NCBI GenBank assembly: GCA_934277435.1
Contig: CAKQUE010000006.1
Coordinates: 3,395-67,394 of the forward strand
Direction: 5' to 3'
Origin: an uncultured Alphaproteobacteria bacterium
GTDB taxonomy: Bacteria > Pseudomonadota > Alphaproteobacteria > RF32 > CAG-239
DNA: 64,000 nucleotides
In this document: in pieces, positions 3,348 through 48,660 of the stretch
Layout: every line of letters begins with the position of its first letter
Position numbering within the stretch: position 1 is the first letter of the stretch
Translations under genes and position numbers: made by a program
The notes under the pieces: model-generated
Databases searched by the model: none
Seen by the model: only the letters and a program-made list of their open reading frames with translations
Told to the model about the DNA's origin: nothing

Positions 3348-3479
3348 TAAAAAACTTCCATTATTTTGAGTTGCCTATATCAATTTTGGCAGCTCATGTA
3401 ATGGGAGTTTTTTTCATTTAATATAGAGCTTTTGAATTTTTCGCTTTACATTCAATTATCTTTCTTATAACCTAAAAAA

Positions 3480-3679
3480 AGACGGATTTTAGTCTGTCTA
3501 GGGCGTAGCAACCCTTTTATAACCAGTCGTTAAAGCATAAACGACTTAAATTTTATATGCCGATTTCTGCCAGTTAGGCGGATGTCGGCTGAATAAGGCT
3601 ATGTGCTGAATAAGCCGAGCCGTTTGGTTATATACGGTTTGCTAACATCCGCCCACTTTTGACAGTGGGTTTTATTTTA
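3480..3679 (+). promoter_or_regulatory. candidate structured 5' leader RNA (riboswitch/attenuator-like), copy 1
   Basis: It is homologous and nearly co-linear with 32790..32986. Shared hairpins are P1 3480-85/3494-99, P2 3500-03/3512-15, P3 3525-30/3541-46 and P4 3559-71/3577-89, and both carry a conserved CTGAATA. It ends in an intrinsic terminator about 25 nt before the pilin-like start codon. Confidence 0.6.
3652..3679 (+). terminator. intrinsic terminator inside leader copy 1
   Basis: CCCACT-tttgac-AGTGGG followed by TTTTATTTT. The segment 3645-3653 (ACATCCGCC) overlaps the 5' arm and is perfectly complementary to 3577-3585. Confidence 0.6.
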
Positions 3680-3703
3680 TGCAAAATAAACGGAGTTAGA
3701 AAT

Positions 3704-4327
3704 ATGTATAAACTAAAAAACAATAATATTGGTCGTTCTATGATAGAAATGCTTGGCGTGTTGGCGATTATCGGTGTGTTAAGTGTTGGTGGAATTGCCG
3801 GCTATTCCAAAGCTATGGAAAAGTTTAAATTGAATAAAACAGTTAGCGAATACAGTTATTTTATTTTCAATATGTTTGAACATGGTGATGAGTTTAAAAA
3901 ATTACCGGAGGGCACCGGATTGGCAAAATTAGCCGAACAGTTGGATTTATTGCCGGCGTCATGGAAATATATTGCTTCTAATAATAGTGAAAGATGGGTG
4001 CGAGATGGGCTTCAAAATAAAATACAGATGTGGCAGACTGGTGGTCATCTTGTTTTTGAAATATATTTACCCATAGATGAAAATGCCAAAAAACTTGACC
4101 TTTGCCGCAGTTTGTTGAAAGACTTTATCTATCCTTTGCACGATTTTGCCCTTTATGCCTTTGTTTGGCGAGTGCGCCCGGAAAAAGAAGATGAAGATTG
4201 GTGGGGGACAAATTATTGCGGAGGTGAACGAAAGTGTCTTAAAGACGTTACCGTTGCCGCCATGGATGCCGCTTGCCGAAGCTGTGTGGATTCACAAGGA
4301 GAATGCTCTATAGTGCTGACTTACTAA
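3704..4327 (+). CDS. prepilin-type N-terminal (type IV pilin / T2SS pseudopilin-like) protein, Cys-rich C-terminus
   Basis: The N-terminus 'MYKLKNNNIG|RSMIEMLGVLAIIGVLSVGGIAGY' has Gly-1, Glu+5 and a hydrophobic helix. GGAG lies 8-9 nt upstream of ATG 3704. The longer ORF-track start at 3659 would overlap the terminator. Confidence 0.75.
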   Translation: MYKLKNNNIGRSMIEMLGVLAIIGVLSVGGIAGYSKAMEKFKLNKTVSEYSYFIFNMFEHGDEFKKLPEGTGLAKLAEQLDLLPASWKYIASNNSERWVRDGLQNKIQMWQTGGHLVFEIYLPIDENAKKLDLCRSLLKDFIYPLHDFALYAFVWRVRPEKEDEDWWGTNYCGGERKCLKDVTVAAMDAACRSCVDSQGECSIVLTY

Positions 4328-24073: not shown

Positions 24074-24078
24074 TATAT

Positions 24079-24191
24079 GCGGCAACCGGCATTCTTGCGC
24101 CTGCCTTTCGTTTGCGGTCAAACTCACATCTGTGAGTTCTCGCCCTCGCTGCACAGCACTAATAAAACAAAAAAGGTCTCAAAAGAGACCT
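24079..24191. repeat. 113-bp GC-rich direct repeat, copy A
   Basis: Matches 24270..24382 with about 5 mismatches. It contains the hairpins AACTCACA/TGTGAGTT and AGGTCTC-aaaa-GAGACCT. Confidence 0.9.
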
Positions 24192-24269
24192 GAAATATTG
24201 TAAATCATTTTTTCAAAATGACGGCGGGACTGGCTGCGCTACGCTGCGCCGCCGCTTCACTCATTGCTT

Positions 24270-24382
24270 GCGGCAACCGGCATTCTTGCGTCTGCCTTTC
24301 GTTTGTGGTCAAACTCACATCTGTGAGTTCTCGCCCTCGCTGCACAGCGCCAATAAAACAAAAAAGGTCTCAAAAGAGACCT
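24270..24382. repeat. 113-bp GC-rich direct repeat, copy B (left arm of a palindrome with the tRNA-Arg 3' end)
   Basis: Bases 24352-24376 form a perfect 25-bp inverted repeat with 24381-24405, GCGCCAATAAAACAAAAAAGGTCTC/GAGACCTTTTTTGTTTTATTGGCGC. The right arm runs into the tRNA acceptor end. Confidence 0.9.
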
Positions 24383-24394
24383 TTTTTGTTTTAT

Positions 24395-24471
24395 TGGCGC
24401 GCTCGGCGGGACTCGAACTCACAACCTTCTGATCCGTAGTCAGATGCTCTATCCAATTAAGCTACGAGCGC
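24395..24471 (-). tRNA. tRNA-Arg (anticodon ACG)
   Basis: Hand-folded cloverleaf: acceptor GCGCTCG/CGAGCGC, anticodon loop CTACGGA, T-loop TTCGAGT, and an encoded CCA. There is one A:C mismatch in the T stem. Confidence 0.85.
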
Positions 24472-32754: not shown

Positions 32755-32783
32755 TTTACATTTTTTATTTTTACCATTACTTT
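32755..32783 (+). promoter_or_regulatory. possible promoter TTTACA-17-TACTTT for leader copy 2
   Basis: The -10 hexamer ends 6 nt before the conserved AGACAG at 32790. A TTTACA also precedes leader copy 1 (3445-3450), but with poorer spacing. Confidence 0.35.
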
Positions 32784-32789
32784 GAAACT

Positions 32790-32986
32790 AGACAGGCGAT
32801 AGTCTGTCTGGGGTGTGACAACCTCTATATATTCGTCTTAGTGTTAGACGTTAATCAAGCATACCTTCTGGTCTATATGGCTGGAAGGTAGCTGAATATG
32901 CTGTATGTAATATATAGCTAATAAGCTACACTATCTAATATATATAGTTGTCAACTTCCAGCTACCTCGTCGGTAGCTTTTTTGTT
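32790..32986 (+). promoter_or_regulatory. candidate structured 5' leader RNA (riboswitch/attenuator-like), copy 2
   Basis: It shares the architecture of 3480..3679: P1 32790-95/32804-09, P2 32810-13/32822-25, P3 32834-38/32846-50, P4 32863-68/32884-89, and CTGAATA at 32892-98, followed by a terminator. Confidence 0.6.
32961..32986 (+). terminator. intrinsic terminator inside leader copy 2
   Basis: GCTACC-tcgtc-GGTAGC followed by TTTTTTGTT. The segment 32955-32961 (CTTCCAG) is complementary to 32881-32887. Confidence 0.6.
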
Positions 32987-33013
32987 GTAATTTCAAAATG
33001 ATGGGAAGTAGTG

Positions 33014-33664
33014 ATGATTAATAATCAACATGGCCGCAGTATGATTGAAATGCTTGGCGTGCTGGCAATAATTGCTGTGTTAAGCGTTGGAGGTATCGCC
33101 GGATATTCAAAAGCTATGGAAAAATGGAAGGCTAATAAGCTGGTTTCGGAATATAGTTATTTAATATTTGGTTTAATGGATAAGGTGAATGAATTCCAAA
33201 ATATGTCAAAAGACACAGGCTATGACTCTCAAGTCGGTTTGAGTAATTATGTGCAATCGGCATCGTTAGTTCCTGAAACTTGGAAATATGCATCCTCAAC
33301 CAGAATGTATGATTCTGAGGGAAATCCGGTATTAATGTTTTCTAGAAGAAATCGTTTAGTCATAGATATTTATCTTGGAACTAAACTTAACTCTAATGGC
33401 TGGATATCCGGAAAATCAGAAGGATTTTCCTTAACTTTATGTCGTGAAGTTATGCTAAATTTGACTCAGCGCCTGAGTGACGTTGTGCAGTTTTCTAGGT
33501 TTTATCAATGGAGTAAAATGGAAAGTTCAGCTGTTTATTGGGGAAACACATCATGCCCTGCAGGGCAAAAATGTTTGCGAGACTTAACAGTTGCTGAAAT
33601 AAATGAAATATGCAAATCTTGCAAAAAAGACAATGAAGCTTGTGGCATAAATATGGAATTTTAG
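33014..33664 (+). CDS. prepilin-type N-terminal (pilin/pseudopilin-like) protein, Cys-rich C-terminus (paralogue 2)
   Basis: 'MINNQHG|RSMIEMLGVLAIIAVLSVGGIAGYSKAMEKWK'. The C-terminus 'C....QKCLRDLTVAE....CKSC......C' aligns with the 3704..4327 protein. Confidence 0.75.
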   Translation: MINNQHGRSMIEMLGVLAIIAVLSVGGIAGYSKAMEKWKANKLVSEYSYLIFGLMDKVNEFQNMSKDTGYDSQVGLSNYVQSASLVPETWKYASSTRMYDSEGNPVLMFSRRNRLVIDIYLGTKLNSNGWISGKSEGFSLTLCREVMLNLTQRLSDVVQFSRFYQWSKMESSAVYWGNTSCPAGQKCLRDLTVAEINEICKSCKKDNEACGINMEF

Positions 33665-48320: not shown

Positions 48321-48354
48321 AAAAAAATTAGGCAGAAGCTTCAAGCATTCTGCC
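48321..48354 (-). terminator. intrinsic terminator after hup
   Basis: GGCAGAA/TTCTGCC stem, with a T-run on the minus strand. Confidence 0.6.
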
Positions 48355-48384
48355 AAAATTTTTCTACAGTAATGATTGTATCAA

Positions 48385-48660
48385 TTAGCTGTTAACGATG
48401 TCTTGCAAAGTTTTACCAGCTTTGAATTTAGCAACATTGCGTGCCGGAACTTTTACGGTTTCACGAGTACGAGGGTTGATAGCTGTTGTAGCTGCTCTTT
48501 TAGAAGTAGCGAATGTACCAAAGCCAACCAAACGAACATCATCGCCAGACTTCAAAGCGGCAGAAACAGAAGAAACGAAAGCATCCAAAGCTTTAGCAGA
48601 ATCAGTTTTTGTTAAGCCGGAAGCAGCAGCAATGCTGTCAATCAATTCACTTTTATTCAT
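48385..48660 (-). CDS. hup: DNA-binding protein HU
   Basis: 'MNKSELIDSIA...', 'VRLVGFGTF', 'RNPRT-like INPRTRETVKVPARNVAKFKAGK'. The start is at ATG 48660, after AGAGGA. Confidence 0.92.
   Translation of the reverse strand: MNKSELIDSIAAASGLTKTDSAKALDAFVSSVSAALKSGDDVRLVGFGTFATSKRAATTAINPRTRETVKVPARNVAKFKAGKTLQDIVNS

Follow-up and report, generated by a model that had tools for sequence, protein, structure and literature searches.

What kind of RNA, if any, is encoded immediately upstream of two pilin-like genes in an uncultured alphaproteobacterium? The genes lie in a 64,000-nt stretch of DNA (GenBank assembly GCA_934277435.1, contig CAKQUE010000006.1, positions 3,395 to 67,394; hereafter, the window), and the regions in question are at 3480-3703 (copy 1) and 32790-33013 (copy 2) of that stretch. 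The original prediction, made from the sequence alone, described copy 1 as the structured leader of a prepilin-like gene, homologous to copy 2, and proposed a riboswitch or attenuator that resembled no recognizable class. Our analysis points to a different relationship: the leaders are probably cis-acting transcription attenuators that are divergent members of the a1b1 plus C4 antisense RNA module.

The two leaders align colinearly with few gaps, and the predicted identity of about 70% over the first 40 nt was borne out by counting (28 of 40 positions). The 24-nt degenerate motif AGACNGNNNNTAGTCTGTCTNGGG occurs at exactly two sites in the 64 kb, at 3480 and 32790, and was absent from 100 shuffled sequences. 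Both 224-nt leaders are more stable than dinucleotide shuffles when folded (z = -6.2 and -5.3). A terminator scan recovered the stem and U-run that had been predicted before each start codon, placing terminator-like hairpins with T-runs at 3651-3670 and 32960-32978, 34 nt from the ATG at 3704 and 36 nt from the ATG at 33014, respectively. The copy 1 terminator (CCCACU-UUUGAC-AGUGGG, 3652-3680, U-run at 3670-3680) is followed by a ribosome-binding site (RBS; GGAG, 3692-3695) and, from the open reading frame (ORF) list and translation, a pilin-like coding sequence whose stop codon ends at 4327. In copy 2, the T-run extends to 32988, the RBS is at 33003-33008 and the stop codon of the pilin-like coding sequence ends at 33664. 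All of these features are on the forward strand, as are those described below for the two leaders. Also aligning between the copies, 30 nt upstream, is the block CTTTACATT, which yields a sigma-70-like promoter, TTTACA-N17-TAnnnT, at 3445-3473 (-35 TTTACA, 3445-3450; -10 TAACCT, 3468-3473) and 32755-32783 (-35 TTTACA, 32755-32760; -10 TACTTT, 32778-32783), with a 17-nt spacer in each case. Because of the position of this promoter, transcription is predicted to start at the foot of the first hairpin, about 7 nt downstream of the -10 box in copy 1. The terminated RNA would be about 195 nt long.

To find homologues, we used nhmmer, seeded with both window leaders, over 80 retained pilin loci and the window. 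This search gave 28 leaders, every one immediately 5′ of a pilin-like ORF. A second pattern, written from the conserved core of the RNA only, found 23 leader instances in 22 of the 80 loci, all at positions found by nhmmer, and then at least 120 loci in metagenome contigs. Altogether, we obtained at least 153 leader instances with at least 102 distinct cores from gut alphaproteobacterial metagenome-assembled genomes (MAGs) and metagenomes. They form two subtypes, both present in this window: subtype 1, which resembles copy 1, contains AACAUCC, and subtype 2, which resembles copy 2, contains AACUUCC. One locus, from the MAG UMGS1578 (L007), is nearly identical to copy 2. The expression signals of the window leaders recur in the homologues. 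A promoter-like -35/N16-18/-10 arrangement was present at the expected position in 79 of 96 homologues, and a 5′ hairpin of -3 kcal/mol or better occupied the position of the first hairpin in 93 of the 96, with widely differing sequences. Nearly all contain the terminator, the stem of which shows compensatory changes in RNAalifold. Counted from the end of the T-run, the median distance to the start codon is 31 nt (interquartile range 29-33), an RBS is always present 3′ of the leader and the gene is always co-oriented with it.

The collected sequences revealed abundant covariation. With 25 sequences, RNAalifold predicted 38 base pairs, 26 of which had compensatory changes. A covariance model (R1), built from 36 subtype-1 sequences with a structure derived from copy 1, produced an alignment of 84 sequences. 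R1 scored complete subtype-1 copies at 104-161 bits and matched subtype-2 copies end to end at 46-70 bits, including copy 2 (53.7 bits, E = 6e-11). In this alignment, the helices compatible with the terminator were paired in 95.6% of cells, compared to 74% in shuffled controls and about 40% when partners were slid, and 33 of the 40 pairs had compensatory changes. A second model (R2), built on the alternative set of antiterminator or C4 helices, matched copy 2 at 46.6 bits; its helices were paired in 96.0% of cells, compared to 82% in shuffled controls, with 25 of 33 pairs compensated.

Covariation extends to every helix. P1, the 5′-terminal hairpin (AGACGGAU-UUUA-GUCUGUCU at 3480-3499; copy 2, 32790-32809), had compensatory changes in all seven pairs in RNAalifold. 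It is followed by P2a, a local hairpin of the general form XGGG/CCCY (AGGG-CGUAGCAA-CCCU at 3500-3515; copy 2, GGGG-UGUGACAA-CCUC at 32810-32825), which was paired in 98.3% of cells, with all four pairs compensated and a closing pair seen as A-U, G-C, and U-A. The P2a loop contains an a1-like strand (3505-3511; copy 2, 32815-32821), the 5′ strand of a long-range helix, P2 (a1:a′), that was paired in 95.9% of cells, with every combination seen at its three central pairs. The b1-like strand that comes next (UAUAACC at 3518-3524; copy 2, 32827-32833) is the 5′ strand of P3 (b1:b′), a hypervariable long-range helix of 7-13 bp whose strands are complementary in nearly all copies. P3 was paired in 97% of cells with all seven pairs compensated, and both P2 and P3 had compensatory changes at every variable position. 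P4 (AGUCGUU...AACGACU at 3525-3546; copy 2, 32834-32850) was paired in 94.6-96.1% of cells, with six to seven of its seven pairs compensated. P5 (3559-3589; copy 2, 32862-32890) is present in the minimum free energy fold of copy 1; its upper stem was paired in 95.5% of cells and its lower stem covaries between subtypes.

The 3′ part of each leader can form a C4-like three-stem domain (3577-3653; copy 2, 32879-32963). Its outer stem, which joins 3577-3585 to 3645-3653 in copy 1 and GGCUGGAAG (32879-32887) to CUUCCAGCU (32955-32963) in copy 2, was paired in 91.4% of cells, and its 10 pairs include five that are compensated and four that are invariant. Within it lie the hairpins P6 (3586-3617; copy 2, 32888-32929) and Px (3620-3637; copy 2, 32931-32947). 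The two parts of P6, P6a and P6b, were paired in 98.8% and 99.6% of cells and are separated by two conserved GAAUAA-like strands; the resulting GAAUAA/GAAUAA internal loop is near-palindromic and conserved in both subtypes. Px is a 4-bp hairpin whose loop, b′ (3626-3632; copy 2, 32937-32943), is the 3′ strand of P3. It was paired in 99.4% of cells and takes nine pairing forms, compensated variants included, among them CCGU/ACGG, CUAU/AUAG, CUAU/GUAG, CCAU/GUGG, CAUU/AAUG, CUGU/GCAG, and CUAC/GUAG. The remaining strand, a′, occupies the joiner before the 3′ strand of the outer stem (3639-3646; copy 2, 32948-32955).

The four hairpins that had been predicted at equivalent positions in the two copies are thus real by covariation and correspond to P1, P2a, P4, and P5. 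That structure was incomplete, as it missed the long-range helices P2 and P3, the hairpins P6 and Px, and the promoter. A long-range GGG/UCC extension of P2 was also considered and was rejected, as GAGG variants favor the local GGG/CCC hairpin. Separately, the 7-nt b1 sequence of copy 1, TATAACC, recurs at 3466-3472, across the predicted -10 box of its own promoter, which is probably a coincidence.

Could the leaders instead be repetitive DNA of the repetitive extragenic palindromic (REP) or miniature inverted-repeat transposable element (MITE) type, or an artifact of gene duplication, with no RNA function? They are multi-copy, contigs often break upstream of pilin-like genes and REP-like palindromes are common in these genomes. 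However, hundreds of compensated changes between copies preserve RNA pairing, G-U pairs included, and the orientation of the element relative to its promoter, terminator, and downstream gene is fixed. Moreover, the two subtypes have the same architecture despite the heavy divergence in sequence evident from their R1 scores. We rejected this explanation on the covariation and fixed orientation and give it next to no chance of being correct.

The arrangement of these helices places the outer stem in competition with both P5 and the terminator. As had been predicted, GGCGGAUGU (3577-3585) is a perfect complement of ACAUCCGCC (3645-3653), and the latter overlaps the 5′ arm of the terminator (3652-3657). 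This mutually exclusive pairing, which is the outer stem, covaries across about 100 homologues. The stem consists of the P5 3′ arm paired with ACWUCC plus the terminator 5′ arm, and its complementarity to the P5 3′ arm holds in all sequences, with 7 bp plus 3 bp in subtype 1 and 9 bp in 31 of 31 subtype-2 sequences. Differences between the subtypes are compensated (A-U to U-A and G-C to A-U, for example), and subtype 2 also contains compensated variants. In copy 1, the P5 3′ arm (3577-3589) also provides the 5′ strands of the outer stem and P6a. The overlap between the lower stem of P5 and P6a consists of CGGC in subtype 1 and of 2-3 nt (GUA, for instance) in subtype 2. Because nucleotides are shared, upper P5 and the outer stem, lower P5 and P6a, and the outer stem and terminator are strictly exclusive pairs. 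Furthermore, the P5 5′ arm, GCCGAUUUCCGU, is an imperfect copy of the GCCGA and ACAUCCG strands, which pair with the same partner in the other fold. When only the 3′ half of the leader is considered, the fold with the outer stem (ON) is less stable than that with the terminator (OFF): the median local energy difference, ON minus OFF, is +5.1 kcal/mol in subtype 1 and +3.6 kcal/mol in subtype 2. Given this local preference of about 4-5 kcal/mol for OFF, a further factor is needed to shift the switch.

We propose that each region is the 5′ leader of an mRNA that would be transcribed from its own sigma-70-type promoter and begin with hairpin P1. P5, a putative anti-antiterminator, would form first, with the 5′ strand of the outer stem pairing with its imperfect upstream mimic. 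If P5 persists, the terminator would form and transcription would stop about 30 nt before the RBS (OFF). If the outer stem, stacked on P6a, displaces P5, the terminator 5′ arm would be consumed, allowing read-through into the gene (ON). The always complementary a1:a′ and b1:b′ pairings, being hypervariable, may give each copy its own recognition code. The balance might be shifted by a ligand, by a protein (Hfq, for example), or by a cognate RNA acting through a1/b1. In this scheme, we infer where transcription starts and stops and which fold gives which outcome. Two leaders (L149, 2268-2457; L176, 4143-4331) are intact to AACAUCCG, after which A/T-rich sequence replaces the terminator hairpin; these may be constitutive read-through variants or disrupted copies.

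Is such a structure related to any known RNA? With permissive settings, a scan of Rfam matched copy 1 to the full length of two families: sRNA-Xcc1 (RF02221) at 3576-3662, with 26.6 bits and E = 0.015 (gathering score 53), and C4 antisense RNA (RF01695) at 3563-3660, with 23.4 bits and E = 0.03 (cut-off 45). Full-length sRNA-Xcc1 matches were also found on 12 of the 15 short homologous loci scanned (24-40 bits, E down to 6e-4). In the sRNA-Xcc1 alignments, the Rfam outer helix corresponds to our antiterminator stem, hairpin 1 to P6, and hairpin 2 to Px.

The 5′ half of the leader also has a counterpart. Weinberg et al. (2010; Genome Biol 11:R31) described the c4-a1b1 motif, which has no Rfam accession; in it, a pair of hairpins carrying a1 directly precedes b1. 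P1 and P2a are the equivalents of its hairpins 1 and 2, respectively. In the published alignment, hairpin 2 reads CGGG-YKU-NNN-AR-CCCG. One published metagenomic member, AGGGCGUAGGAACCCUUUUA, matches window positions 3500-3519 at 19 of 20 positions, and another member, CGGGUGUGACAACCCG, resembles P2a of copy 2. In addition, the annotated order of elements in phage P1 is promoter, a1 (48255-61), b1 (48269-76), c4 (48343-48419), a2, b2, and icd, with about 190 nt between the transcription start and the C4 3′ end. Reading the phage sequence places b′ in the loop of hairpin 2 and a′ in the joiner before the 3′ strand of the outer stem, and the 3′ strands of P3 and P2 sit likewise in our leaders. 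In the same phage (L201, 48320-48356), a sequence shortly before c4, CGUUACGCCC, is able to pair with the 5′ strand of the C4 outer stem (GGGCGUGAUG), such that a P5-like precursor hairpin is predicted from the sequence.

Given the reproducible sub-threshold matches to C4 and sRNA-Xcc1, the match to the c4-a1b1 hairpin, and the colinearity with the immI region of phage P1, the idea that the leaders represent an unrecognizable new riboswitch class is not supported. We treat the leader as a divergent relative of the a1b1 plus C4 module that is not a member by Rfam criteria.

A small-molecule riboswitch could nevertheless have this overall organization. In that case, the conserved domain would be an aptamer, for example for a cyclic dinucleotide, and the ligand would shift the balance between terminator and antiterminator. 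The domain is large and has conserved unpaired nucleotides, with the GAAUAA/GAAUAA loop in both subtypes, and it is coupled to mutually exclusive folds, the terminator and its competing helix, with a local bias of about 4-5 kcal/mol. There are many copies per genome before pilin, adhesin, and envelope genes, including tandem copies in L082 and L169, and the set of genes controlled by cyclic di-GMP riboswitches resembles the pilin, adhesin, and envelope genes behind these leaders. However, no Rfam riboswitch family was detected in the window even at E values up to 10, and the conserved core matches the helices and loops of C4 and sRNA-Xcc1, which work through RNA-RNA pairing and for which no metabolite binding is known. 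The downstream genes also lack a common metabolic theme, and hypervariable, compensated a/b elements are expected of antisense determinants, whereas a neutral structural helix would be expected to change more slowly. For these reasons, we regard a riboswitch as unlikely.

The rate at which the a and b elements change is apparent from closely related leaders. In pairs of leaders that are 94-97% identical elsewhere, identity in the columns of P3 and the central (NNN) part of P2 was only 45.5%, compared to 96.7% in the other helices, and these hypervariable columns still paired in about 97% of cells. We counted 80 distinct a/b combinations among the 84 aligned leaders, and copies on the same contig always differed. 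The longest Watson-Crick run joining the Px loop to the 5′ part of the same leader averaged 8.2. Such hypervariability is expected of specificity determinants and not of an ordinary structural helix. In phages P1 and P7, heteroimmunity stems from minor differences in the immI region (PMC6906374). The fast diversification of the a/b elements amid a conserved remainder suggests RNA-RNA specificity codes between paralogous leaders in one cell.

At two loci (L082, 489-993; L169, 96-600), tandem leaders about 270 nt apart lie 5′ of a gene for a lipoprotein with a PEGA domain. In these tandems, b1 of the upstream copy has lost its match to b′. Just 3′ of that copy's terminator, L082 has a 7-nt complement of its b′, which could be a b2-like site, although an assembly chimera is possible.

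Locus-specific a′ and b′ elements that look like recognition sequences raise the possibility that each leader is an independent trans-acting small RNA (sRNA) gene of the C4/sRNA-Xcc1 type. Its terminator would be constitutive, its targets would lie elsewhere, and its position upstream of a gene would be incidental or serve for delivery by read-through. With its own promoter, strong terminator, predicted RNA of about 195 nt, and similarity to known trans-acting RNAs, the leader has features of such a gene, and the Brt RNAs of Bartonella show that abundant, terminated leaders of about 200 nt can also act in trans (PMC5387305). However, all of the approximately 100 copies with a callable downstream ORF are co-oriented with it, and the RBS and start codon are fixed about 31 nt from the T-run, with no room for a second promoter. 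In addition, a′ and b′ are complementary to sites in the same transcript, and the helix in competition with the terminator is both conserved and compensated, for which there would be no need if termination were constitutive. We therefore doubt that the leaders are stand-alone sRNA genes, an explanation to which we assign only a small probability.

A third alternative is that the leader is a binding site for a protein (an antiterminator, Hfq, ProQ, or a NusG paralogue) that stabilizes one fold, with the RNA as a passive target. The near-palindromic conserved internal loop could bind a dimer, the bias toward OFF needs external input, and sRNA-Xcc1 homologues in Xylella were reported to have Hfq-binding signatures (PMC12189769). 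No candidate protein gene was linked to the leaders in the loci we examined, and no known protein-dependent leader family was matched in Rfam. As this explanation is compatible with attenuation and not opposed to it, a protein could contribute to the switch; a leader that serves simply as a protein-binding site strikes us as very unlikely.

Several results weigh against the interpretation of the leaders as attenuators derived from the a1b1 plus C4 module. At gathering thresholds, a scan of the window and 20 homologous loci with Rfam returned only tRNAs, so there was no clear hit to a described family, and all of the C4 and sRNA-Xcc1 matches described above were sub-threshold. Even with permissive settings, copy 2 matched neither C4 nor sRNA-Xcc1, and three of the four subtype-2 loci scanned gave no sRNA-Xcc1 match (the remaining one did). 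R2 scored phage P1 c4 at 1.3 bits, which is not significant. A model built from 44 published c4-a1b1 sequences (R3) had its best window match in copy 1 (3496-3519), at a weak 9.9 bits and E = 1.5, and copy 2 (32806-32829) ranked sixth in the window, at a similarly weak 8.2 bits and E = 3.8. When b′ was compared to the 140 nt downstream of its own leader, the longest complementary run was 5.03, as opposed to 4.97 for the downstream sequences of other leaders; this comparison covers b′ only, as a′ is too short. As no downstream target of the a2/b2 type was found, the classical mode of action of C4 is not reproduced.

Other reservations concern the switch itself. With nested folding of the whole leader, OFF is favored by 17.5 kcal/mol in copy 1 and 8.5 kcal/mol in copy 2. 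The paired fractions for the two helix sets come from alignments, R1 and R2, that were each fitted to their own structure. Finally, P3 and Px, and likewise P2 and P2a, may be able to form together as pseudoknots. An 8-bp P3 has a linker of about 2 nt before its 3′ strand and a 12-13-bp P3 one of 5-6 nt, as fits a linker that must span the helix, which favors coexistence of P3 and Px. Nested energy calculations cannot separate a pseudoknot fold from two alternative nested folds.

Which genes might the leaders control? The two downstream proteins in the window are paralogues (39% identical) with N termini that resemble class III signals, G/RSMIEMLGVLAI, where the slash marks the putative cleavage site. 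The copy 2 protein alone matched Pfam N_methyl, below the cut-off (18.2 compared to 21.2), and it scored 15.5 with TIGR02532, for which the cut-off is 16.3. A G/RSMIE...hydrophobic pattern is invariant in the family to which these proteins belong, which contains more than 7,875 proteins, mostly from uncultured Alphaproteobacteria. In species-representative genomes, we found more than 571 pilin-like loci, 15-18 or more per MAG, all from gut bins named "uncultured Alphaproteobacteria" apart from a few that are mislabelled. Some MAGs with many such loci (L001, L002, L003, and others; records CAVKTH, CAVGVF, and CAVIDY) are titled Bacteroidaceae or Eubacteriales, which suggests mislabelled bins. 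Many contigs stop shortly before a pilin-like gene, which would be expected if assemblies were broken by the leader together with the conserved stretch that codes for the N terminus.

The description of copy 1 as the leader of a prepilin-like gene was correct in that such leaders do precede pilin-like genes; they are not specific for them. The scan of metagenomes with the RNA-only pattern, which found the leader before many other genes, ruled out a pilin-specific element. These genes encode autotransporters (PF03797, E = 4e-55), lipoproteins (one with a PEGA domain), an OmpA-like beta-barrel, and small exported proteins. Behind 102 distinct leaders, the rough classes were 42 pilin-like proteins, about 18 lipoproteins, about 15 autotransporters, about 10 other exported proteins, and about 10 proteins that appear cytoplasmic, with the pilin share inflated because the genome loci were chosen through the pilin gene. 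Occasional downstream ORFs encode an EcoRI-type adenine methylase, an XRE regulator, or a glycosyltransferase. Specifically, the cytoplasmic proteins include the EcoRI-type methylase, an adenine-specific DNA methyltransferase (PF13651, E = 1e-128), in L091 and L161; XRE-type helix-turn-helix proteins in L175 and L130; and the glycosyltransferase in L161 (3741-3985).

Pilin-like genes also varied in other ways. Some paralogues that lack the leader start with ATGAAAAATAAGC... followed by a (TC)7 or (TC)8 tract. We found 23 such sites in 21 loci, none of them in the window (for example, L004 2415-2460 and L005 2516-2560, and in L015, L018, L020, L023, L025, L039, L043, and L071). Relative to the ATG, the pilin frame is +2 with seven repeats and +1 with eight, such that only six or nine repeats would be in frame; the frame is open for 200-600 nt. 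From the sequences, these tracts look like slipped-strand phase variation, with all assembled copies OFF. Some leader-associated pilin-like genes contain long in-frame insertions between the ATG and the G/RSMIEML cleavage motif (L003 2770-3019, L052 2881-3028, L026 2899-3046, L012, L057, and the first copy in L002). These insertions, which make the prepeptides very variable, are often REP-like palindromes, translated as ...LLRRYAPRNDV... or MSICVAVGNKVMDTRLPQP....

Two other features of the window were noted. Just upstream of copy 1, positions 61-2733 encode an 890-aa protein with MORN repeats and many ankyrin repeats. At 24078-24191 and 24269-24382, two G+C-rich repeats of 114 nt, 96% identical and 191 nt apart, adjoin a tRNA gene (24398-24471, minus strand) and are probably REP-like palindromic elements.

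The attenuator model could be extended to an RNA-only, locus-specific bistable switch, an extension that we consider speculative and decidedly unlikely. In the OFF state, a′ and b′ of the terminated transcript would be masked in cis by a1 and b1. In the ON state, read-through transcripts would take the C4 fold and might be processed further, releasing a C4-like RNA. Classical C4 is processed by RNase P to a trans-acting RNA of about 77 nt. Pairing of the C4-like RNA in trans with a1/b1 on newly made transcripts of its own locus would hold that locus ON. Matched a/b codes would prevent cross-talk among the dozens of paralogous switches per cell. If true, such a switch would allow heritable phase variation of pilins, autotransporters, and lipoproteins without a change in DNA, beside the slipped-strand (TC)n mechanism of other paralogues.

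What, then, do these leaders add? C4-type RNAs were known as antisense RNAs of phage immunity and integrons, and action in cis through a terminator had been raised only in passing, by Weinberg et al. (2010), who noted that the P1 stem of C4 sometimes overlaps a terminator and might act in cis. We found neither the leader sequence nor a mention of it in the main texts of Fremin and Bhatt (2021) and Weinberg (2017), or in 200 of the 408 supplement files of Fremin and Bhatt (2021). The leaders are probably a new cis-regulatory, multi-copy variant of the C4/a1b1 RNA family, in which overlap with a terminator is the rule, more than 100 copies are distinct, and both competing folds are supported by covariation. 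They extend this family beyond the reach of Rfam thresholds. The module appears to have been recruited as a standard 5′ leader of genes for pilin-like proteins, autotransporters, lipoproteins, and outer-membrane proteins in abundant uncultured Alphaproteobacteria of the human gut, and it offers a concrete model for the control of surface proteins in these bacteria.

How do the leaders compare to known systems? As in the trp leader, with its 1:2, 2:3, and 3:4 logic, four segments (the P5 5′ arm, the P5 3′ arm, ACWUCC plus the terminator 5′ arm, and the terminator 3′ arm) pair alternately with their neighbors. Unlike trp-type attenuators and riboswitch platforms, there is no leader peptide or known ligand, and the antiterminator lies within a larger conserved three-stem domain. 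Brt1-9 of Bartonella henselae are likewise multi-copy, structured, terminated leaders of about 200 nt in an alphaproteobacterium, with the terminator immediately 5′ of the gene; they were proposed to be riboswitch-like and perhaps trans-acting as well (PMC5387305). We compared them by description only. The two leaders here that precede XRE-type regulators (L175 and L130) recall the Brt/Trp arrangement in Bartonella, whereas the Brt RNAs were reported to be genus-specific and always 5′ of XRE genes (PMC5387305).

The differences from C4 RNAs are considerable. Overlap with a terminator is universal in the leaders and occurs in only some C4 RNAs, and the leaders contain an additional hairpin, P5, that sequesters the 5′ strand of the outer stem. 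Their scores are below gathering cut-offs (23 compared to 45 for C4; 24-40 compared to 53 for sRNA-Xcc1), and no a2/b2 target was found for them at the downstream RBS. They are chromosomal, multi-copy, and 5′ of envelope-protein genes in gut Alphaproteobacteria, rather than in a prophage immunity region or integron. As for c4-a1b1, its published members are from gamma-Proteobacteria, phages, and metagenomes, and the sequences of its hairpin 1 loop and stem differ from those of P1.

The resemblances nonetheless extend along the whole leader. As in c4-a1b1, two adjacent hairpins directly follow the -10 box, with b1 within about 3 nt, and the second is a 4-bp GGG/CCC stem with an 8-9-nt YKU-NNN-AR loop that carries a1. 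As in C4 (RF01695) and sRNA-Xcc1 (RF02221), an outer stem, here supported by covariation, encloses two hairpins, and the string GCCGU...ACGGUUU..AAC, the stem GCCGU/ACGGU and, in hairpin 1, the string GAAUAAGCC are shared; some hairpin 1 terminal loops are UUCG or CUUG, as in C4. As in C4, b′ lies in the hairpin 2 loop and a′ in the joiner, both complementary to a1/b1 upstream in the same transcript. Like the C4 of phage P1, the domain belongs to the leader of the operon that follows it and lies about 190 nt from the predicted transcription start, with an order of elements that is colinear with immI.

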